Part shown: positions 25,145 to 41,432 of the stretch, one piece after another
How the letters are laid out: every line of letters begins with the position of its first letter
Position numbering within the stretch: position 1 is the stretch's first letter
NCBI GenBank assembly: GCA_038077975.1
Contig: JBBUGM010000027.1
Location: 1 to 50,951, forward strand
Length of the DNA: 50,951 nt
Direction of reading: 5' to 3'
Origin: Patescibacteria group bacterium
GTDB taxonomy: Bacteria; Patescibacteriota; Minisyncoccia; UBA6257; 2-01-FULL-56-20
Program-made: the position numbers and the translations under genes
The notes under the pieces: generated by a model
The model's input: only the letters and a program-made list of their open reading frames with translations
Told to the model about the DNA's origin: nothing
Databases searched by the model: none

Positions 25145-25238
25145 GCGCGGATTTATGCGGATTTGCGTCCGCTCACGGCCGCTGATACGTGCGGAAATAT
25201 CAGCATAAATCGGTTAAAATCAGCATTAATCAGCGCAA
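25145..25238. repeat. Periodic palindromic element (GCGGAT/ATCAGC family) before pcrA
   Basis: gcggattt units followed by atcagc units; homologous to 21200-21237. Confidence 0.7.
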
Positions 25239-25239
25239 C

Positions 25240-27312
25240 ATGCAAGACCTAAATCCACAACAAAAAAAGGCGGCCGAGGCGGCGGTCGGGCCGCTTATAA
25301 TAGTGGCCGGCGCCGGAACCGGAAAAACGCGCACATTAACGCACCGCATCATTCATTTAATAAATGAAGGGGTGCCGCCCGAGAGGGTCTGCGCGATAAC
25401 CTTCACGAATAAAGCGGCGGAAGAAATGCGTTCACGCATTTCTTTATCAACGAATAACGAATCAATTGCGAATAAACGAATTCGTAAATTCGAAACAAAT
25501 TTGTTATTCGCTGATTTGCCTTTTATAGGCACCTTCCACTCTCTTGGCGCGAAAATTTTACGGAAAGAAGCGCGCGCCCTTGGTCGAGCGCCGAACTTCG
25601 TTATTTTCGATAGCGACGATTCTTTTTCGCTCATTAAAAGAATCGTTAAAAAATTTTTCCCGAAAGAAGATCACAAAAAAGTTCTTCGACAAGCTCAGGA
25701 TAAAAAATCTCCGGCGTATTTCGCAAGAAAGATCGGTGAGATAAAAAATTTATATAATGCTGATGGCGATGATTATCGCCTGAGCGAACGGAGCGAGTCG
25801 AAGGCCAACCATCTAAAAACCCTTCGACAAGCTCAGGGAATAAACTGTGTTAAAATTTATAACGAATACGAGAACGAATTGAAAAAAAATAATGCATTCG
25901 ATTTTGATGACCTTATCGAAAAACCGGTTTCGCTTTTCGAAAAACATCCGGAGATCCTTGAAAAATATCAGAAAAAATTTGACGCCATCCTTGTCGACGA
26001 ATATCAAGATGTGAATCCGAAGCAATATGATTTCGTGCGCTTGCTTTCCGGCGGTCACAGAAACTTGAGCGTAGTAGGGGACGATGAGCAGATGATCTAT
26101 GGCTGGAGATATGCCGATGTAAAAATATTTTTGAATTTCGACCGTGATTGGCCTGGCGCGCAAATCGCATTCCTCGAAGAAAATTATCGTTCGACCGCGA
26201 ACATCATCAATGCCGCGGCCGCCGTCGCGAAAAATAATTTATTGCGGACACCGAAAACCCTTTGGACAAAAAGCGAGGCCGGCGCTCCGATAAAGATCAT
26301 CGAGATTGCGGATGAAGAGCAGGAAGCGGAATATATCGCGCGGGCAATATATAATGCCGATGATGCGGACGGAAACAATGCGGATGATGCCGATAACCAT
26401 CCGCAACATCCGCATAAAACATTCGTAGATCCGCATTATGAAAGCATCGCCGTGCTCTATAGGACCAACGCCCAGTCGCGGGCGCTAGAACAGGCGCTTA
26501 TCCGGCACCAAATTCCCTATAAGATATTCGGCGGAGTGCGGTTTTACGAGAGAAAAGAGATCAAGGATATAATTGCTGCCTTGCGCTGGGTTTTTAATCC
26601 GAAAGACACGATAAGCCGCGAAAGATTGGAGAAAAACCTGCCGAAATTCAAGTTTCGGGCGCTTGAAGACGCCCTAATTGAAACCAAAAATGAGCTCGCC
26701 GCGCCAAAGACGAACGGCGGAGGCGGGCTACCGACAGAACTTATCAAGACGTTTCTCGAAGCAACCGATTACCTCGAATATCTTGACAGGAGCTACTTAA
26801 ACGCCGAGGAAAGGCGGGAGAACATCAAGGAATTGGTGGGGTTTGCCGCCGGATTTGATGACTTGGAACGTTTTTTGGAAGAAGTGGCGCTGGTGCAACC
26901 CCTCGATCAATCTGGCGACAACAATAAAAATCGGGGTATCATCCAAAAAAATCAAGAAAATCATTCGGGGCATTCGGATGTATTTGTAGATTCGGATCGC
27001 GGCAGGTGGCCGGAGGTCCACCTGATGACCATCCACCTTGCGAAGGGGCTGGAGTTCGATCGCGTATTCATCGCCGGTTGCTCCGAGGGATTAATGCCCC
27101 ATGCGATGTCTATGGACAAGAGCGAACAACTCGAAGAAGAGAGGCGGCTGATGTACGTCGCGATGACGCGCGCGAAAAAAGAATTGAATATCAGTTTCTA
27201 CAACATTCCGTCGCGATTTATCGGCGAAATCCCGCAGGAACTTGCCGAATATAAAACCGCCGCGGATAATGCGGCGGGAAACGAAGAGGAGGAAATCGTT
27301 TTCTTGGATTAA
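25240..27312 (+). CDS. pcrA: SF1 helicase PcrA/UvrD with several repeat-derived insertions
   Basis: GAGTGKT, TFTNKAA, DEYQD, VGDDEQ, LEENYRS, LYRTNAQS, AKGLEF, EERRLMYVAMTRAK; ATG 25240. Confidence 0.95.
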   Translation: MQDLNPQQKKAAEAAVGPLIIVAGAGTGKTRTLTHRIIHLINEGVPPERVCAITFTNKAAEEMRSRISLSTNNESIANKRIRKFETNLLFADLPFIGTFHSLGAKILRKEARALGRAPNFVIFDSDDSFSLIKRIVKKFFPKEDHKKVLRQAQDKKSPAYFARKIGEIKNLYNADGDDYRLSERSESKANHLKTLRQAQGINCVKIYNEYENELKKNNAFDFDDLIEKPVSLFEKHPEILEKYQKKFDAILVDEYQDVNPKQYDFVRLLSGGHRNLSVVGDDEQMIYGWRYADVKIFLNFDRDWPGAQIAFLEENYRSTANIINAAAAVAKNNLLRTPKTLWTKSEAGAPIKIIEIADEEQEAEYIARAIYNADDADGNNADDADNHPQHPHKTFVDPHYESIAVLYRTNAQSRALEQALIRHQIPYKIFGGVRFYERKEIKDIIAALRWVFNPKDTISRERLEKNLPKFKFRALEDALIETKNELAAPKTNGGGGLPTELIKTFLEATDYLEYLDRSYLNAEERRENIKELVGFAAGFDDLERFLEEVALVQPLDQSGDNNKNRGIIQKNQENHSGHSDVFVDSDRGRWPEVHLMTIHLAKGLEFDRVFIAGCSEGLMPHAMSMDKSEQLEEERRLMYVAMTRAKKELNISFYNIPSRFIGEIPQELAEYKTAADNAAGNEEEEIVFLD

Positions 27313-32424: not shown

Positions 32425-34806
32425 ATGTCCATTCTGAAAATAAATAAAAAATATTGGCTGGCGTTTATTCTTCTGGCGGTCGTTTTTATGGTCGCGACTC
32501 CACTAAATTTAGCGCGCGCGCAAGAACTTCCGAGCGCCCGTTCATGCGCCGGTAATCTTGTTGGTTGCGGAGTATATGTCACCGCATTGCTTGCAAATAA
32601 AATCAGTGGGTTGCTGGTATCCGGCGGGGCCTATCTTTTTGAGATTTCCCTGGAATTTAGCGCGGGGGCCGCTCGTATGCCGGTCGTTGAAAATGGTTTC
32701 AGCACGGCTCTTGCAATAGCCAATCTTGGATTTGTTCTTGGCATTATAGTAATCGCTATTGCAACAATTCTTCGCAATCAGACGTATGGCATCAAACAGC
32801 TTCTTTGGAAACTGGTAGTCGCGGCAATACTTGTTAACTTCTCTTTAGTAATAGGAAGAACTATTGTGGAGTCCGCGGATAATTTAACGAAGTCGTTTTT
32901 ACCGAACAGAAGCGTGCTGGCGGCGAGATTAGCCGATGCCCTCAAACCGCAGGCCGCCAATATTCCCCCGGTGCTTGCTTCTGCGGGCTCGAGCGGAGCA
33001 TGGTCGGCAAGTGTATGCGCCGATCAAGCAAGCAAGCTTGGAACCGACGCATTAAGAAAAGCGGCCGCTGCCACGTGTTCATTTATGGCCACAATACTAG
33101 ATCCGGTTTCAACTATACAAAATTTTACCTGGTTCTGGGGGCTTGGTCTGGGGGATTTATTCAGGGCGGCGCTAAATATGGTGATGGTGGTCTTTGTCAA
33201 TATGGTAATTGCATTTACTTTGTTGGCCGCCGCCATAATGTTAATTATCAGATTCTTTTACATAGGCATTTTGCTTATATTAATGCCGTTCGCGTGGCTG
33301 ATGTGGATTTTCCCGAACTTCAAATATCTGTGGACAAAGTGGTGGGGCTTGTTTTTAAGGTGGACGATGTTCGCGCCTGTCGTCGTAATTTTCTTGTTCC
33401 TTGCTTCTGAAACAGCTCAAATCGAATTTATCGACAATATAATCGGTGGCGCTGGAAACTTAAACAGTAGCGCTGCCATAGCTTTGTCTGCCGGAACCGG
33501 CAATCCCGCGCTCACCTTCTCTGTTGCGTCGCAAATAATGGTTGCCGCCTTTGCCCTCGGCGGGCTTTTCGCGGCTAACTCTCTAGGCATCCACGGAGCG
33601 TCATTCGCAATGGGCATCGCGAAAAGCGCGGGCACGATGGCGGCGGGGTATGTGGGGAAGCAAACCAAAAAGGGCGGCAGGGCTATACTGCGTAGCACGG
33701 GCATTGCGGAGAGAATGAGAACCAGTCCGTTGAGGCCGGTAGCTATTGCGGGCAGAGCGTTAGCTGGCATCAGTACGAACGAGGCGATGGTCGCGGAAGC
33801 CGCAAAAAAAGTGCTGGACAGAAAAGAGGATGTAATGGCAGGCCTTAGGGGCTCAATGAACACCGAAACACGGATGGCATATCTGCAAAAAGCTCAGAAG
33901 GAGGGCTGGATCAAACCGGATACGGAGGTGGGCGGTATGAGTGTGGGCGAATTTCTGAATCGGAATAGGGAAAAATTCAAGGGTTACGGGCAAAGCGGGG
34001 AAGGAAGTTTGGAAGAAAAATTAAGGGAGGACACGAAGTTGGCAGAACAAGATTGGACAAATGAAGAAAAAACAATCAATGCAAGAAACGGGGAACTAAA
34101 CAAAAAACGCAGTCTTTCCGACGAGGATGCCGCAAAGCAGGCCGGTTTGGGCGACGACGATAGGAATTTCTATTTGGCCGCAGAAAAAGAGAGCGAATAT
34201 GAATTTGCCTTGCGATCCGAAAAAGACAAAGAGAGGTTCTCTCAACTCCGCAGCAAGGCGCAGGAAGCCAGAGAAAAAGGCGGCCTCTCGCCCGAAGAAC
34301 AAAGAGAATTTGAAGAAAACCAGAGAAAACTTGGCGACATCGAAAGGAAGCGCAGTAAATACGTTTCAAAAAATCCGGATGCCGCCGCGGCAACTTTCCA
34401 AGACCACGAAGCGGCGCGCGCCAAACTTGCAGCCGAAGGCAAGCCGATTCCGGCAACGCTGGAGAAGGAATCGATAGAACGTATGCAAGAGGCAATGTTA
34501 AGCGCGATGGCTAAGGGTTTTTCTCCTCACACTGCCCGCGCCCTACTTGATGCCATTGGGAAAGCTAACAACCTTAAGCACTTTGAGGCCGCCGTAATGC
34601 GCCTAAAAGAAGGTAAAACGCCGGAGGATAAAAAGAAATTCGACCAAATACAGATGGCTCTCAACGCTAACACAGAACTCAAGCGCTGGATGCAAAACAG
34701 CGCGGGCCGGGCGCTTTTCGGCAACATTCATGAATTGTTCGGGCTTAAGAAGCTTAAGAATAAGAAGCGGAAGATAGAGGACGAAGAAGATGAAGAAGAA
34801 GCATAA
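32425..34806 (+). CDS. VirB6/TrbL-like polytopic membrane protein with a charged coiled-coil tail
   Basis: Signal peptide (LARA-Q), multiple TMs (IILLILMPFAW-like, WWGLFLRW), long K/E-rich C-terminus; context upstream of prgI and virB4. Confidence 0.72.
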   Translation: MSILKINKKYWLAFILLAVVFMVATPLNLARAQELPSARSCAGNLVGCGVYVTALLANKISGLLVSGGAYLFEISLEFSAGAARMPVVENGFSTALAIANLGFVLGIIVIAIATILRNQTYGIKQLLWKLVVAAILVNFSLVIGRTIVESADNLTKSFLPNRSVLAARLADALKPQAANIPPVLASAGSSGAWSASVCADQASKLGTDALRKAAAATCSFMATILDPVSTIQNFTWFWGLGLGDLFRAALNMVMVVFVNMVIAFTLLAAAIMLIIRFFYIGILLILMPFAWLMWIFPNFKYLWTKWWGLFLRWTMFAPVVVIFLFLASETAQIEFIDNIIGGAGNLNSSAAIALSAGTGNPALTFSVASQIMVAAFALGGLFAANSLGIHGASFAMGIAKSAGTMAAGYVGKQTKKGGRAILRSTGIAERMRTSPLRPVAIAGRALAGISTNEAMVAEAAKKVLDRKEDVMAGLRGSMNTETRMAYLQKAQKEGWIKPDTEVGGMSVGEFLNRNREKFKGYGQSGEGSLEEKLREDTKLAEQDWTNEEKTINARNGELNKKRSLSDEDAAKQAGLGDDDRNFYLAAEKESEYEFALRSEKDKERFSQLRSKAQEAREKGGLSPEEQREFEENQRKLGDIERKRSKYVSKNPDAAAATFQDHEAARAKLAAEGKPIPATLEKESIERMQEAMLSAMAKGFSPHTARALLDAIGKANNLKHFEAAVMRLKEGKTPEDKKKFDQIQMALNANTELKRWMQNSAGRALFGNIHELFGLKKLKNKKRKIEDEEDEEEA

Positions 34807-34819
34807 ATTCTAGCTAAAC

Positions 34820-36358
34820 ATGACTAATATCACCACGCAACAAGCAAGGGCGCGCTTCACAACAATTCCGCAAATCTTGCAGAACGAGGTTTTTTCCGTA
34901 CAAAACGCGGAAGTTATCGAGCAAATCTCGAAGCAAAATAATTTACCCGACGAGAAAATAGGAGAAGTTGCGGAAGTTGTTGGTTTCGCTCTTTTGGGGT
35001 TCATCCATCCCGAAGATGTGGCGAAAGAAGTAGAAGAACGGGCCGAAATTCCGCCCGCGCTTGCAACCGCGATATCCGAAGCGATAAATAAAAAAATATT
35101 CGCTTCTTTAAGAAACCAGTTAGATGAAATCTATGCTCCGGCTCCCCACGATCACGAACTCGAAGAAAAACCGCCGGTCTTTGTGGAAGAAATTAGGCCG
35201 CCGGTGGCGACTGCTCCTTCCGCTCCGAAAATGCCGACGGCGGTGCAACCCGTTGATATCAACAAAATTTTTGGCCCTTCGGCTGGCTCAGGGCAGGCGA
35301 TGACGCGACCCATTCCGCCGCCAGCGGTAAAACCTTTCGGCGCAATACAGGTTAAACCGCCGATGCCGCCTGCGCCGTCAACCGCAACAGGAATGAAAGT
35401 AGAGCCGCCCAAGCCGCCAGTATCGCAAATCTCTCCGATAAAGCCCGCCTCATCGACGCCTACATCAAAACCGCCCGGCAAGGAGGGATTGAGCGAATTT
35501 GAACGCCTCGGACTCGCCAAAAAATTAGGAGAGGCAACAGAACCAACGGTGCTTTACAAAGCACCAGAGGCAAAACTCGGCGAAAAAGTATCGAGTTTCA
35601 AGATCGAAACGCCGATCCCGAAATTCGACAAAGGAAAGCCCTTCGACTCCGCTCGGGGTATAACCGCTCCCCTAAGGCCGGCAGTACTCGAATTCGGGAC
35701 GGGCAAGCCGCCAGCCGCCCCTCCTTCGCCCAAAGCCGCGGAGGGCAAGGCGAGAATTGTGAACTATTCGGATCTAAAAACGACTCTTCCCCCGGTGGCA
35801 CCAAAACCGGCTCCAGAAAGAGAAATTAGGGAATTCACCGCGAAAGAAGCCGGACTCCCGACTTCACCCTCCAAAATTTCTGAAAGAAATTTAGGAGGGC
35901 AGGCGTCGGGAATGACAGAGAGGCCAGCGGCCGTGGCGCCATCGCCAATTAAACCCTTCGACTTCGCTTCCGCCGACGCCAGGGCTTTGGCGGACAGGCA
36001 GGGAATAAAAGCTCCAGAAAAACCAGCGGCTACACCCATGTCCAGACCACTCTTGGGGGACGAGAAAGCGATGCACCCCTCCCTTGAACCGTTGATGAAA
36101 AAAAGCGAGCCGCCCTCGCCTCCGGCTACGGCGAGCCAAAGACCGCCGGCTCCGCCGCCTTCCCCTTCGACAAGCTCAGGGAATAACGGAAGTTTATCGC
36201 CTGAGCGAGCTTCACGAGTCGAAGGCCGCCCTGCGACAAGCCCGGGAAATAACTCGACAAGCTCGGAGAATAACACCCCGCTGGCTTCTCCTCGCCCAAG
36301 AATCGAGCCACCACCCGTTCGTCGGCCAGAAAATCCATCCGACGAACGCAAGCTCTAA
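34820..36358 (+). CDS. Protein with a folded N-terminal helical domain and a Pro-rich disordered tail built partly from REP-like repeats
   Basis: Ordered first ~105 aa, then P/S/A-rich; repeat copies detailed in findings. Confidence 0.8.
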   Translation: MTNITTQQARARFTTIPQILQNEVFSVQNAEVIEQISKQNNLPDEKIGEVAEVVGFALLGFIHPEDVAKEVEERAEIPPALATAISEAINKKIFASLRNQLDEIYAPAPHDHELEEKPPVFVEEIRPPVATAPSAPKMPTAVQPVDINKIFGPSAGSGQAMTRPIPPPAVKPFGAIQVKPPMPPAPSTATGMKVEPPKPPVSQISPIKPASSTPTSKPPGKEGLSEFERLGLAKKLGEATEPTVLYKAPEAKLGEKVSSFKIETPIPKFDKGKPFDSARGITAPLRPAVLEFGTGKPPAAPPSPKAAEGKARIVNYSDLKTTLPPVAPKPAPEREIREFTAKEAGLPTSPSKISERNLGGQASGMTERPAAVAPSPIKPFDFASADARALADRQGIKAPEKPAATPMSRPLLGDEKAMHPSLEPLMKKSEPPSPPATASQRPPAPPPSPSTSSGNNGSLSPERASRVEGRPATSPGNNSTSSENNTPLASPRPRIEPPPVRRPENPSDERKL

Positions 36359-36485
36359 ATCCTAAGCCCTAAATCCTAAACAAAATCAAAATTCTAATGT
36401 TCCAAAACGCTAAAAACTTTTGGAATTTAGGATTTGTGGTTTGGGGCTTGTTTAGAATTTAGAATTTAAATATTAGAATTTAAAC
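36355..36485. repeat. 7-nt periodic palindromic element (CTAAAT/ATTTAG family)
   Basis: ctaaatc-ctaagcc-ctaaatc-ctaaaca left arm; ttagaat-ttagaat right arm. Confidence 0.8.
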
Positions 36486-36487
36486 TG

Positions 36488-36979
36488 ATGCAATTCCAAG
36501 TTCCCCAATTCATCGAAACGGAAGACAAGATAGTCGGGCCTTTTTCCATAAGGCAATTCATTTATATAGGCGCGGCCGGCATTGTGAGCTTCTTCCTTTA
36601 TTTCACGGTCGAGCTCTGGCTTTGGGTTTTGGGCACCGTTTTTTCGCTGGCGCTCGCAATGGGATTCGCCTTCATCAAGATAGAAGGGCGCGATTTAACG
36701 CATGTTCTCGCCGCGGCTTTGAACTTTTACTGGAAGCCACAAACCTACGTCTGGCAGCCGGAACATCCGGAAGTGCCGAAAAGCGAGGCGCTCGAAAAGG
36801 AAGCGGGAATTTCACTTGAAGACGTCCTTTCCGGTGCCGCGCTTCGAAACGCCTGGCGTGGGCTACAGACCGGCACGAAAGTTTCGCCTAGACAGGTCCT
36901 CGAGAAAGGAGAGAAATATCAGATCTTTCAAAAATTGAGCGGAGAACGCCGCGCCGCAAGGCGCATAGATTACAGATAA
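36488..36979 (+). CDS. prgI: PrgI-family (VirB3-like) membrane protein
   Basis: MQFQVPQFIETEDKIVGPFSIRQF followed by two TMs. Confidence 0.85.
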   Translation: MQFQVPQFIETEDKIVGPFSIRQFIYIGAAGIVSFFLYFTVELWLWVLGTVFSLALAMGFAFIKIEGRDLTHVLAAALNFYWKPQTYVWQPEHPEVPKSEALEKEAGISLEDVLSGAALRNAWRGLQTGTKVSPRQVLEKGEKYQIFQKLSGERRAARRIDYR

Positions 36980-37068
36980 TGCAAAAATCAAAATGCAAAA
37001 ACTGATTTCGAATGATAGAATTAATTAAACTTCATTTTGAATTTTGATTTTTTAATTTTGATCTAATT
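36978..37068. repeat. 7-nt periodic palindromic element (CAAAAT/TTTTGA family)
   Basis: atcaaaatgcaaaa is shared with 43143-43156 and with rsmA 29320-29333. Confidence 0.78.
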
Positions 37069-37070
37069 TT

Positions 37071-37742
37071 ATGCCCAAAGATCTCGGCAACACACAAGAC
37101 CTCGTGGCCATCGAGGAAATAAAAGAGGACACGGTGGTCCTCAAAGGCGGCGCCCTGCGGCAAATCATTATGGTGAGCGGCGTTAACTTCGCCTTGAAAT
37201 CGGAGGTAGAACAAAACGTGATAACGCAGTCGTATCAGAATTTTTTAAACGGACTCGATTTCAACATCCAGATCGTCATCCATTCGAGAAAAGTGAATGT
37301 GGAAAAATATCTTGGGATCATCACGCGCTTCGAAGAGATGGCAACGGTGCCCCTCATCAAAAACCAGGCGAGCGAATACAAAGAATTCATCCGCAGTTTC
37401 GTTTCCAAGAACGCGATCATGGAGAAAACGTTTCTTGTGCTCGTGCCTTTCGCCTCTGTTGCCTTGCCGAGCGCGGAATCCGTAACTTCCGGCATTTCTC
37501 TGCCGTTCTTCAAAAAGAAGGACGCGAAAGAAACGGAGGCGAAAGCGAAAGAGGCATCCGAAGAGCGCTTCAAGGAGGATCTGGCGCAACTTCGCCAGCG
37601 CACAACGCAAGTTGTGGACGGCCTTTACTCTGTCGGCCTTGAATCGGTGGTTCTGAACACTGAACAATTGATCCAGCTTTTCTATAATTTTTACAATCCG
37701 GAAACGATCGAAAGGGAGAATATGGAAATACCAAATCAATAA
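37071..37742 (+). CDS. T4SS-associated protein resembling the VirB4/TraE N-terminal region
   Basis: IIMVSGVNFALKSEVEQ...YQNFLNGLDFNIQIVIHSRK; lies between prgI and virB4. Confidence 0.72.
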   Translation: MPKDLGNTQDLVAIEEIKEDTVVLKGGALRQIIMVSGVNFALKSEVEQNVITQSYQNFLNGLDFNIQIVIHSRKVNVEKYLGIITRFEEMATVPLIKNQASEYKEFIRSFVSKNAIMEKTFLVLVPFASVALPSAESVTSGISLPFFKKKDAKETEAKAKEASEERFKEDLAQLRQRTTQVVDGLYSVGLESVVLNTEQLIQLFYNFYNPETIERENMEIPNQ

Positions 37743-37744
37743 AG

Positions 37745-37830
37745 TATCGATGCTAATCTGCGAATGAATACTAATTATACTAATGAATTTTTATTCGTAT
37801 CATTAGCATAATTCGTATATTCGTATCGAT
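37745..37830. repeat. Palindromic element, CGAAT/ATTCG family
   Basis: 16-nt identity with 17833-17848. Confidence 0.72.
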
Positions 37831-37839
37831 ACAATATCT

Positions 37840-39555
37840 ATGCCTGAAAATAATTTCAAAAACATCGCGAAGATAATAGCGCCCTCCGGCGTGCAGGTGC
37901 AGTCGAACAAGGCGAAGATCGGCAACAAAATCGCCAAGGCGTTCTTCGTTTTTTCTTATCCGCGCTATCTCGCGACCGGATGGTTCGAGCCCCTGATCAA
38001 CCTCCCCTACCTTTTCGATGCCTCCGTCTTCATAGACCCGATAGACACGGGCACGGCTTTGAAAAACCTACGAAAAAAGGCGGCGCAGATCGAGTCGCAG
38101 ATCAACGACCAGCAGGAAAAAGGGCTCGTGCGCGACCCCCTGCTCGAAACCGCCCTCCAGGACGTGGAGACCCTGCGCGATACACTCCAAACCTCGCAGG
38201 AAAAGCTCTTTGATGTCGGCCTTTATGTGACGATCTATGCCGACACCGACGACGAACTTGCGAAAGTCGAGTCGAAGCTTATCTCTCTTCTCGAAGCAAA
38301 GCTTGTCTACTTGAAGCCGGCGCTTTTCGAACAGCTTGAGGGCATTTTCTCGACCCTCCCCTTGGTTGACGACAAGTTGAAGATACACACGCCGATGAAC
38401 TCGGGGCCGGTTTCGTCTTTCTTCCCGTTCGTCTCCGAAGATCTTTCTTCCAACGAAGGAATTCTCTACGGCGTGAACCTCCACAACCAAAGTTTGGTCA
38501 TCTTCGACAGATTCTCGCTTGAAAACGCGAACCAGGTAGTTTTCGCGAAATCCGGCGCCGGAAAATCGTACGCCACGAAACTCGAGATCATCAGAGCCCT
38601 GATGACTGATGTCGAAAACATTATCATCATCGACCCCGAGAACGAATACAAAAAACTGGCGGAGACGTTCGGCGGCAGCTGGTTCAATATCTCGCTCTCT
38701 TCGAAAGAGCATATCAACCCATTCGACATACCCATGGTTCCCGAAGATGAATCTCCCGCAGACGTTTTGCGCTCTCACATCGTGAACCTTACGAGCTTAC
38801 TCAAGCTCATGCTCGGAAAGATCGCCCCGGAAGAAGAGGCGCTCCTCGACCGCGCCGTCACGGAAACCTACGCTTCGCGTGAGATCTCACCGAACAGGGA
38901 TTTCTCGGGCATCGAGCCGCCACTCCTCGAAGACCTCGAAACGGTTCTCCGCAATCTTGAGGGCGGCCGTTCGATGGCGGAGAGATTATACAAATACACA
39001 AAGGGTAGTTTTTCCGGCTTCATCAACCAGCCGACGAACGTGGACATGTCTAACCGGCTTATCGTTTTTTCCATCCGCGATCTTGAGGAAGAGCTACGGC
39101 CGATCGCTATGTTCGTCATTTTGAACTTTATTTGGAACCTTATACGCGCAAAACTTTCAAAGCGCCTACTTTTGATTGACGAGGCGTGGATCATGATGAA
39201 GAACGAAGACGCCGCCACTTTCCTTTTCGGAATGGTGAAACGCGCGAGAAAATATTATTTGGGCGTGACGACGATTACGCAGGACGTGGAGGACTTCTTG
39301 CGTTCGCCTTACGGCAGGCCGATCATCACAAACTCTTCTCTCCAGCTTTTATTAAAACAGGCGCCGGCAACGATCGAGCTTGTGGCGAAAGCTTTTAATT
39401 TAACTGAAACGGAAAAGAATTTCCTTCTGGGCTCCGAGGTCGGAACCGGACTTTTCTTCGCCGGCCGCAGGCACGTGGCGATCCAGATCGTCGCGTCTTA
39501 TTTCGAGGATCAGATAATCACGACAAACCCGGCGGAACTTTTGGAAGGAAAGTAG
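37840..39555 (+). CDS. virB4: VirB4-like T4SS ATPase
   Basis: ILYGVN, FDRFSLENAN, Walker A FAKSGAGKS, IIDPENEY, INPFD, Walker B LLIDEAW, RARKY, TITQDVEDF. Confidence 0.93.
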   Translation: MPENNFKNIAKIIAPSGVQVQSNKAKIGNKIAKAFFVFSYPRYLATGWFEPLINLPYLFDASVFIDPIDTGTALKNLRKKAAQIESQINDQQEKGLVRDPLLETALQDVETLRDTLQTSQEKLFDVGLYVTIYADTDDELAKVESKLISLLEAKLVYLKPALFEQLEGIFSTLPLVDDKLKIHTPMNSGPVSSFFPFVSEDLSSNEGILYGVNLHNQSLVIFDRFSLENANQVVFAKSGAGKSYATKLEIIRALMTDVENIIIIDPENEYKKLAETFGGSWFNISLSSKEHINPFDIPMVPEDESPADVLRSHIVNLTSLLKLMLGKIAPEEEALLDRAVTETYASREISPNRDFSGIEPPLLEDLETVLRNLEGGRSMAERLYKYTKGSFSGFINQPTNVDMSNRLIVFSIRDLEEELRPIAMFVILNFIWNLIRAKLSKRLLLIDEAWIMMKNEDAATFLFGMVKRARKYYLGVTTITQDVEDFLRSPYGRPIITNSSLQLLLKQAPATIELVAKAFNLTETEKNFLLGSEVGTGLFFAGRRHVAIQIVASYFEDQIITTNPAELLEGK

Positions 39556-41204: not shown

Positions 41205-41432
41205 GGTTAAATCACAAATTACAAGCACCAAATTACAAATTAATATTAAAAGTCAAAAACATCTGTCATTCTCGGACTCGATCCGAGAATTCAGGATCGT
41301 CCAAGAAACTAGATTCCCGCTTTCGCGGGAATGACAGGGAATATCATTTTGGTCATTGAAATTTGTTTGTGATTTGTAATTTCGAATTTGTGATTTTAGC
41401 CGCTTGGGATTTGATTAGGTCAATTAGAAATT
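41205..41432. repeat. Composite: heptamer palindrome with a nested REP (41264-41336), then a 29-nt dispersed repeat
   Basis: tgtcatt...gattcccgctttcgcgggaatgaca between heptamer arms; ttgggatttgattaggtcaattagaaatt is identical at 41404-41432 and 44477-44505. Confidence 0.8.

Follow-up and report, generated by a model that had tools for sequence, protein, structure and literature searches.

Very short palindromic repeats lie in frame in the predicted disordered tail of a protein from a type IV secretion-like gene cluster of Patescibacteria

The stretch of DNA analysed here (the window) is a contig of 50,951 nucleotides (JBBUGM010000027.1; C27 in the contig numbering used below) from a Patescibacteria group bacterium (assembly GCA_038077975.1; 0.77 Mb, 33 contigs, 88.6% complete). 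It contains an open reading frame (ORF) for a protein with a helical N-terminal domain and a long proline-rich tail, hereafter the focal ORF, located within a gene cluster resembling a type IV secretion system (T4SS). Ten repeat-derived units, all in frame, were found in the tail: seven of a family named REP-A, one of a family named REP-C, one NTS/dRS3-like hairpin and one hairpin inside the loop of the latter. The features of the focal ORF, together with an intergenic repeat used as a reference, are given below; G001 denotes the same-genus genome and its orthologue, and P0002, P0003 and P0009 denote further orthologues.

34820-36358, forward strand: focal ORF, 512 aa, identical in independent assemblies
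34820-35155, forward strand: all-helical N-terminal domain, residues 1-112, with a GFIHPED motif; AlphaFold predicted local distance difference test score (pLDDT) 85-98
35275-35298, forward strand: degenerate REP-A, read PSAGSGQA; 21 bits, rank 61 of 1.5 million positions
35639-35664, forward strand: REP-A variant with a 3-nt spacer, CCCTTCGACTCCGCTCGGGGTATAAC, read PFDSARGIT; close match at C26:8426 and C2:11442
35721-35749, forward strand: REP-C unit CCTTCGCC-C-AAAGCCGCGGAGGGC, read PPSPKAAEGK; pattern match at 35723-35746
35850-35920, reverse strand: NTS/dRS3-like hairpin CTGTCATTCCCGAC...GTCGGGAGTCCGG; outer stem 35856-35862 with 35905-35911, loop holding a second hairpin
35867-35904, forward strand: inner hairpin CCCTCCAAAATTTCTGAAAGAAATTTAGGAGGGCAGGC, read PSKISERNLGGQA; arms 14/15 complementary
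35954-36010, forward strand: long REP-A variant, read PFDFASADARALADRQGIK and ending in CAGGGAATAAAAG; absent from G001, P0003 and P0009
36163-36186, forward strand: canonical REP-A CCCTTCGACAAGCTCAGGGAATAA, read PSTSSGNN; 42 bits; same 24-mer as in pcrA at 25820-25843
36193-36227, reverse strand: inverted long-arm REP-A TTATCGCCTGAGCGAGCTTCACGAGTCGAAGGCC, read LSPERASRVEGR; pairs with 36163-36186
36229-36273, forward strand: two overlapping degenerate REP-A units, read PATSPGNNSTSSENN; 24 bits (36229-36252) and 11 bits (36250-36273); direct-repeat family D1
36290-36331, forward strand: conserved C-terminal motif PRPRIEPPPVRRPE, in the same frame, 3' of the repeat cluster
41309-41336, reverse strand: reference intergenic repeat TGTCATTCCCGCGAAAGCGGGAATCTAG, a hairpin of NTS/SRM type; fold z = -3.8

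REP-A is the commonest repeat of the genome and has the form CCTTCGAC-N-GCTCAGGGAATAA, in which CCTTCGAC is followed by 2 to about 30 variable bases and then by GCTCAGG(G/C/A)AATAA; the commonest 12-mer of the genome, TCGACAAGCTCA (41 copies), is part of it. An inverted partner, TTATYGCCTGAGC...GTCGAAGG, is often present, the pair forming a hairpin, and full pairs have the inverted ends TTATT...AATAA. REP-A units are 17-26 nt long, while tail-type units taken together span 17-60 nt, often as 24-nt half-sites of eight codons. When 40 copies from beyond the focal ORF were used to train a weight matrix, four sites of the focal ORF ranked within the top 71 of 1.5 million genome positions; in a shuffled genome, no position reached at least 20 bits and five reached at least 10 bits. 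The 8-mer CCTTCGAC occurs 4 times in the focal ORF and 96 times genome-wide (expected 0.19, Poisson p = 5e-5). Exact-pattern copies number 54 in the focal genome, 0 in G001 and 0-15 in other relatives, with at most one match in any genome for the reversed-pattern control. By the strict pattern there are 62 copies in the focal genome, 37 of which (60%) are inside ORFs of at least 150 aa, which make up 78% of the genome.

The second family has the form CTGGATTCC-stem-loop-stem-GGAATGACA, the 9-mer GGAATGACA being present in 24 genome copies, and is of the NTS/dRS3 type. Its reference copy at 41309-41336 agrees with the NTS consensus CGTCATTCCCGCGMAVGCGGGAATCYRG (PMC11893778) at 27 of 28 positions and also fits the SRM pattern, for which the genome has 10 matches versus 2-4 in shuffles. 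REP-C (CCTTCGCYAARGCYNCGGMGGRC) gave 21 matches in 11 of 41 relative genomes and none in the reversed control. An Rfam scan of the window found two tRNAs only, and the repeats match no RNA family. Tandem REP-A arrays with exact 24-nt and 28-nt periods were seen in a relative of the same order (G029:C1:3896-3984, C4:28115-28188 and C7:34099-34172).

An earlier note, made from the DNA letters alone, had listed seven repeat segments in the tail, all of which hold up as repeat-derived, in frame and non-random. Their boundaries and families required some revision: the segment given as 35954-35998 extends to 36010, and 35721-35749 belongs to a separate family, REP-C. This last segment was at first set aside as a non-repeat, since the focal genome yielded no second copy by blastn-short or k-mer counts and the segment's fold z is 0.08, a view overturned by the REP-C matches in relatives and in P0003, whose unit HPSFAKATEGK is ~27/31 identical and lies at a different position and in another frame.

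The nested hairpin that the note had described at 35856-35917 folds exactly as claimed, its stems measuring 7 bp (outer) and 6+8 bp (inner), at -18 kcal/mol and z = -4.6, and none of 200 shuffles was as stable. The proposed likeness of its outer element to the repeat at 41311-41336 was also confirmed, the former being NTS-like and the latter of NTS type, with a degenerate arm in the ORF copy. The 5' half of the nested element, TGTCATTCCCGAC, is identical to the copy at C31:29018, while the 3' half differs at two positions (own comparison); the loop of the ORF copy is ~42 nt long where the SRM pattern allows at most 5, and the pattern does not match it. Analogues with a hairpin in the loop are located at C31:28964 and C1:8402. 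The inner hairpin has one other genome copy, in ychF (C17 about 22364, minus strand), with which it shares 13/13 and 13/14 bases and the reading NLGGQAS; within the YchF-like GTPase ORF (C17:22026-23516, minus strand), this copy appears as CCCTCCAAAATTT...TTAGGCGGGCAGGC and is read EKNLGGQAS. The pair at 36163-36227 likewise folds as a hairpin (z = -2.6). Across repeat junctions, the predicted translation of the tail contains the peptides PPPSPSTSSGNNGSL and ...ENNTPLASPRPRIEPPP.

REP-A is also found in frame elsewhere in the genome. Of its 37 in-ORF copies, 17 are in the PSTSSG frame, 7 in the LRQAQG frame, 10 on the reverse strand and 3 in the TAA-bearing frame. Four of the six frames are used, the readings varying with frame and strand (PSTSSG, LRQAQG, PFDxxQG and PELVEG). 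DnaK (C17:5483-7360, minus strand) has an 8-residue REP-A insert, VKIGSPSTSSGQAEWQ, in a loop of the nucleotide-binding domain where E. coli has VEVK--GQ--KM, and further in-frame units are present in IleRS, MurC, MurD and PcrA. The forward 24-mer of pcrA, although identical to the tail unit at 36163-36186, is in a different frame (TLRQAQGI).

Several details of these genes were noted in passing. The MurC-like ORF (C4:18519-19979, minus strand) has two REP-A units, GRDPSTSLRAG and GRDPSTRSGRA, and the MurD-like ORF (C31:10428-11786, plus strand) has one, LTLRQAQGIK, directly before the GxxGKGT P-loop. In the PcrA helicase gene (25189-27312), a REP-A inverted pair is located at 25773-25843, with a further unit at 25686. 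The IleRS-like (C14:5650-9303, plus strand) and ValRS-like (C32:1578-4418, minus strand) ORFs each contain a complete His_Phos_1 domain (PF00300; E = 1e-31 and 6e-42, respectively), inserted between two CxxC knuckles of the synthetase core, and the IleRS REP-A unit directly follows the second knuckle.

The disorder prediction that the earlier note had proposed as a check was run with AlphaFold on a 30-sequence alignment, and the model leaves the tail, ~400 residues, unstructured: no secondary structure is predicted beyond residue 115, and pLDDT is 35-60 except at residues 491-500, the C-terminal motif, where it reaches 70. Several short motifs of the tail are conserved, namely EFERL, FK(I/L)ExPxPKF, PAVLEFG, R(V/I)VxY(S/T)xLxTPLP, REIxE(I/F)T and the C-terminal PRxRIEPPPxR(K/R)P, the last of which reads PRPRIEPPPIRKPE in G001, RERIEPPPVRKPE in P0002 and RLRIEPPPV in P0003. 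An additional motif, LLGDEKxMHPS, is restricted to the closest three orthologues. In the alignment, the repeat units sit between the conserved motifs, which palindrome-free orthologues possess as well. Of the 512 residues, about 109 (99 counted plus 10 of the REP-C segment) are encoded by repeat DNA, which is about a fifth of the whole protein and a quarter of the tail. The claim that the tail was assembled from repeats is therefore overstated, its backbone being formed by motifs conserved throughout the family. What the note had named as grounds for doubt, tails conserved without the palindromes, was found in part: the motifs are kept without repeats, yet the length and sequence between them differ.

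Of 24 genomes in the same family, 22 have an orthologue of the focal gene, as has one further genome of the order; lengths run from 306 to about 600 aa, and four residues of the N-terminal domain (G60, F61, H63 and E70) are invariant. Homologues also occur in metagenomes, one of them labelled Candidatus Paceibacterota by its source, and a metagenome scan for close relatives gave 167 pattern matches, none related to the focal protein. Most tail units appear from these comparisons to be lineage-specific inserts. In G001, the orthologue (466 aa, 44% identical) has all of the motifs, ends in PRPRIEPPPIRKPETPNT and contains no REP-A unit. The site at 35639-35664 is a gap in this orthologue, has its own REP-A in P0003 and a decayed one in P0002, while the insertion status of 35275-35298 is ambiguous in the alignment. 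A block of 41 residues (36162-36285) is missing from all four aligned orthologues, and the conserved C-terminus follows it in frame. Given that this C-terminus beyond the repeats is conserved in frame, also in the REP-A-free G001, translation would run through the repeats, and its position after the 41-residue block is the best evidence that they are translated. Two assemblies obtained independently from other samples contain the same DNA, one 100% identical and the other differing at 3 of 7502 bases, all outside the focal gene, which excludes mis-assembly.

The focal ORF is flanked by the following features.

32425-34806, forward strand: VirB6-like upstream neighbour, 793 aa, assigned by hydrophobic stretches and position; syntenic in relatives
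36349-36485, strand not assigned: intergenic AT-rich word palindrome overlapping the focal stop codon; TCTAAATCCTAA has 19 genome copies
36488-36979, forward strand: PrgI/VirB3-like gene (Pfam)
37071-37742, forward strand: TraC-like gene (Pfam)
37840-39555, forward strand: VirB4-type ATPase gene (Pfam)

The Pfam matches among the downstream genes (36488-39555) are PF12666, PF19044 and PF12846, with PF26593 in addition. The upstream product, which has no family match in Pfam or NCBIfam, is called VirB6-like from several hydrophobic stretches in its translation and from its position. The order VirB6-like gene, focal ORF, PrgI/VirB3-like gene, TraC-like gene and VirB4-type ATPase gene is the same in the window and at four other loci from other samples (L021-L025), and therefore the focal gene is a member of a conserved T4SS-like cluster, as the earlier note's T4SS association implied. 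Homology of its product to a named T4SS protein was found in none of the searches (Pfam, NCBIfam, PDB sequence, PDB profile and Foldseek); the N-terminal domain and the tail match no family or fold, with a best Foldseek E against PDB of 0.4, and reading the sequence revealed no signal peptide or membrane segment.

The proposal that the tail is an insertion sink is supported by the orthologues. The REP-A density of the focal ORF equals that of the densest sites anywhere in the genome, and at ten orthologous loci in other genomes we found 6 REP-A/REP-C units in 8.9 kb of tail versus 1 in 39.4 kb of flank (binomial p = 2e-4). The tails of three other lineages have collected their own units, in varied positions and frames: KPFDFASLDTARD twice and HPSFAKATEGK in P0003, SAFAKASADK and KPFDSAQGK in P0009, and HPSTGSGQ in P0002. 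Between two same-genus genomes, the tail shows 31% gapped columns and 40% identity, the neighbouring PrgI ~3% gaps and 66% identity, and the TraC-like protein ~3% gaps and 59% identity. The comparison of tail length and repeat content among orthologues, which the note had suggested, thus upholds its claim of rapid length and sequence variation between species, where both differ, but not among near-identical strains, where neither does.

Tolerance of dispersed repeats in the spacers of a disordered tail very probably explains most of these data. The focal protein would consist of a folded helical N-terminal domain and a disordered proline-rich tail, in which short linear motifs are parted by variable spacers. 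In a lineage-specific burst, very short repeats (REP-A, NTS/dRS3-like hairpins and a few other families) may have entered genes almost as readily as intergenic DNA, and copies in an open frame at structurally permissive sites would survive and be translated. The tail spacers would in this way have gathered about ten units and ~109 residues, leaving the motifs and the downstream frame undisturbed, so that selfish repeat DNA would have its sink in the tail and the fast change of the latter in length and sequence would be due in part to the repeats. Starting from the identity, enrichment, in-frame state and lineage specificity of the repeats and from the predicted disorder, we infer that the units are translated and are neutral passengers kept by tolerance, and likewise their mode of insertion. 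Several observations weigh against this explanation. No empty site turned up in a close strain, the other assemblies being essentially the same strain and the next relative only 44% identical, and the insertion boundaries rest on protein alignments of low-complexity sequence, in which 35275-35298 and the REP-C unit are not clean insertions. At the site after IPKFxxxK, the focal protein and P0003 have REP-A and P0002 a decayed copy, a finding that points either to long retention, hinting at function, or to a hot spot, hence targeting rather than pure tolerance. Finally, two neighbouring regions of low complexity, the VirB6-like protein's K/E-rich C-terminal part and the PKD protein's Gly/Ser linker, are without REP-A, so that low complexity is not in itself enough for a sink.

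Targeted insertion is possible, though we consider it rather unlikely. The tail's own K-P-F codons (AAR CCN TTY), which resemble the CCCTTCGAC end of REP-A, would draw units in from other copies, by gene conversion or microhomology-mediated repair, perhaps once a small GIY-YIG nuclease has nicked the DNA, and tolerance would be needed but secondary. Consistent with this, seven frame-1 REP-A units in the tails of four lineages are preceded by AAA/AAG and read K-PFD, and KPF is also found in tails without REP-like DNA, such as that of G001; units in other frames (PSTSSG and SPER..VEG), however, are without KPF context, and the shared IPKFxxxK site, which fits targeting, may also reflect common ancestry. 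Regarding the nuclease, REP-A abuts four small GIY-YIG genes in three relatives, including genes on G015:C15, G007:C10 and G014:C15; ~0.4 adjacencies would be expected by chance (own estimate), and the REP-A load of genomes is correlated with their number of GIY-YIG genes (rho = 0.48, p = 0.0014, not corrected for phylogeny). On the other hand, at 40 further GIY-YIG loci of relatives that bear REP-A, strict REP-A is missing from the adjoining ~400 nt, and none of the seven GIY-YIG genes of the focal genome has an adjoining REP-A. A general GIY-YIG/REP-A association was dropped for this reason, being limited to the four genes, and stays a lead.

Functional recruitment, in which the repeat peptides or the in-gene DNA or RNA hairpins are selected, appears improbable. 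Possible roles would be those of spacers or binding modules, adaptive surface variation, or mRNA structure tuning the expression of PrgI and VirB4. The unit after IPKF is kept in three lineages only about 38-44% identical, the focal protein evolves faster than its neighbours and the nested hairpin is unusually stable, all of which would suit selection; yet these units also turn up across many unrelated genes and in differing frames, they are degenerate and lineage-specific, and the same-genus orthologue does without all of them. Surface variation, moreover, has to contend with the missing signal peptide and membrane segment, which leave exposure to a host or predator hypothetical. We regard an artefact or chance, whether through low complexity rich in Pro, Ser and Gly, mis-assembly or the untranslated extension of a shorter gene, as very improbable indeed. 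The region is GC-rich and of low complexity, and the opposite strand likewise has long ORFs; nevertheless, shuffled-genome nulls give 0 matches at the observed scores, reversed-pattern controls at most one match per genome, three independent assemblies agree, and the conserved motifs with the C-terminal PRPRIEPPPxR continue downstream in the same frame in many orthologues.

The nuclease lead can be formulated more specifically. REP-A, instead of being a passive relic, might serve a subfamily of small UPF0213-type GIY-YIG nucleases as their cognate DNA motif, the two forming an Ssn-like pair with a different motif; nicking and templated repair would then copy 17-26-nt units into new sites, including coding DNA, with K-P-F-rich tails preferred via microhomology. 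We consider this doubtful and put it forward as speculation, but if true, it would constitute a nuclease-driven generator of in-frame peptide insertions in the minimal genomes of Patescibacteria, and the newly described Ssn type of nuclease/repeat pair would gain another motif, another phylum and another consequence, the remodelling of coding sequences. Among PDB entries, UPF0213 proteins come nearest to the REP-A-adjacent nuclease, and NCBIfam gives no subfamily call for the GIY-YIG ORFs. At locus L026 (G015:C15:10500-11205), one of the four adjacencies, REP-A, a GIY-YIG gene and an inverted REP-A are placed within a tRNA 3' end that is duplicated, with atccggtcggctgcgc to either side, an arrangement that looks like a complete mobile unit. 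The seven GIY-YIG ORFs of the focal genome (C14:13631, C1:43803, C14:1232-1450, C11:10295, C11:82176, C31:19610 and C8:218) are small (75-128 aa), single-domain and each accompanied by its own flanking inverted repeats, and look like mobile mini-elements. Those on C31 and C8 are near-identical and bracketed by the inverted repeat accgagcacataagtt / aacttatgtgctcggt; inspection of flanks showed that two others adjoin tRNA-like sequence.

Among known systems, the closest analogue of the tail is that of the Rickettsia palindromic elements (RPEs), the phenomenon here involving ultra-short units and Patescibacteria instead of Rickettsia. We noticed no sequence relation, RPE sequences not having been compared. 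As summarized in PMC10969869, RPE-1 to RPE-10 (Ogata et al. 2000, 2002) are selfish palindromes found in frame in many genes and read through as added peptide segments, about 100-150 bp long and with one peptide per family. Both cases involve dispersed palindromic repeats of a reduced genome, in frame in unrelated genes, including housekeeping ones, at fold-compatible positions. REP-A is such a dispersed, palindromic, many-copy family (54-62 copies, inverted pairs), and it is apparently read through in unrelated genes, judging from the 37 of 62 copies in ORFs, the DnaK insert and the tail frame. It does not share the length or the single peptide of RPEs, its units being 17-60 nt and read in several frames, and the stacking of about ten units of four families in one disordered tail goes beyond the RPE summary in that source.

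The NTS/dRS3 repeats, SRM and the Ssn GIY-YIG single-strand nucleases (PMC11893778) offer a second, partial analogy, in which the repeats are described as flanking genes and not as translated. The repeat at 41309-41336 is of NTS type and the outer stem in the tail is NTS-like, the genome has seven small GIY-YIG genes, and some GIY-YIG genes of relatives are repeat-bracketed, as in SRM-ssn-SRM. By contrast, the ORF copy has its ~42-nt loop filled by a hairpin and one degenerate arm, and REP-A, the main family of the tail, does not fit the SRM pattern, which matched only 41309-41336 in the two stretches scanned. The REP-A-adjacent nuclease is nearest to UPF0213, and its membership of cd10448 (Ssn) is at most tentative. 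MITEs (miniature transposable elements with inverted repeats) such as QMITE1/2 of Coxiella burnetii (PMC5896051), ERIC and BOX can also be in frame, as in the 33-residue extension of EnhC. Here too the analogy is partial. Like the tail units, they are repeats of the non-autonomous kind, which contribute residues to the ORFs that they overlap or lengthen; unlike them, MITEs are larger, have terminal inverted and direct repeats and are mostly at gene ends, whereas the tail units are internal, multiple and shorter. Target-site duplications were not seen around the units in the focal ORF.

REP/BIME elements with RAYT transposases (PMC2817692, PMC3733652) are short palindromes with a GTAG or CGTC end tag. 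REP-A resembles them as a high-copy, short, imperfect palindrome in alternating orientation, and the pair at 36163-36227 is BIME-like. Nevertheless, REP-A is not extragenic (60% of copies being in ORFs of at least 150 aa), its consensus CCCTTCGACAAGCTCAGGGAATAA was found by inspection to lack a GTAG or CGTC tag, and no RAYT (Y1) transposase gene was detected by PF01797 in the focal genome at its 88.6% completeness. Literature searches returned no description of palindromic or MITE repeats in the Candidate Phyla Radiation and nothing relevant on the REP-A sequence or its peptides (including CCTTCGACAAGCTCAGG).

The smallest bacterial genomes are usually termed streamlined. Tolerance in the tail spacers, our preferred explanation, would let selfish repeat DNA supply some of them steadily with new protein sequence. 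The focal gene displays several stages of this process: a fresh canonical unit, decayed units, a nested repeat and a unit seemingly kept across lineages ~40% identical. Disordered spacers between linear motifs appear to tolerate repeat DNA, providing a mechanism for fast change in the length of disordered regions. When Patescibacteria proteins are annotated, PSTSSGNN, LRQAQGI, PFDSAQG, SPELVEG, SFAKATEGK and similar peptides should be taken as repeat scars and not as signs of homology.

Further observations concern the surrounding cluster. The VirB4-type ATPase is apparently split into a 223-aa TraC-like N-terminal gene (37071-37742) and a 571-aa P-loop gene (37840-39555), a split kept in the relatives L021-L024. 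A 23S_rRNA_IVP gene (PF05635) is located between the PrgI and TraC-like genes at L023:2402-2785 and immediately after the focal orthologue at L025:2479-2847, positions at which it is missing in the window. The spacer at 36349-36485 is an imperfect palindrome of short words, among them TTAGAATTTAGA with 14 genome copies, and the last residues of the focal protein may derive from this AT-rich palindrome.

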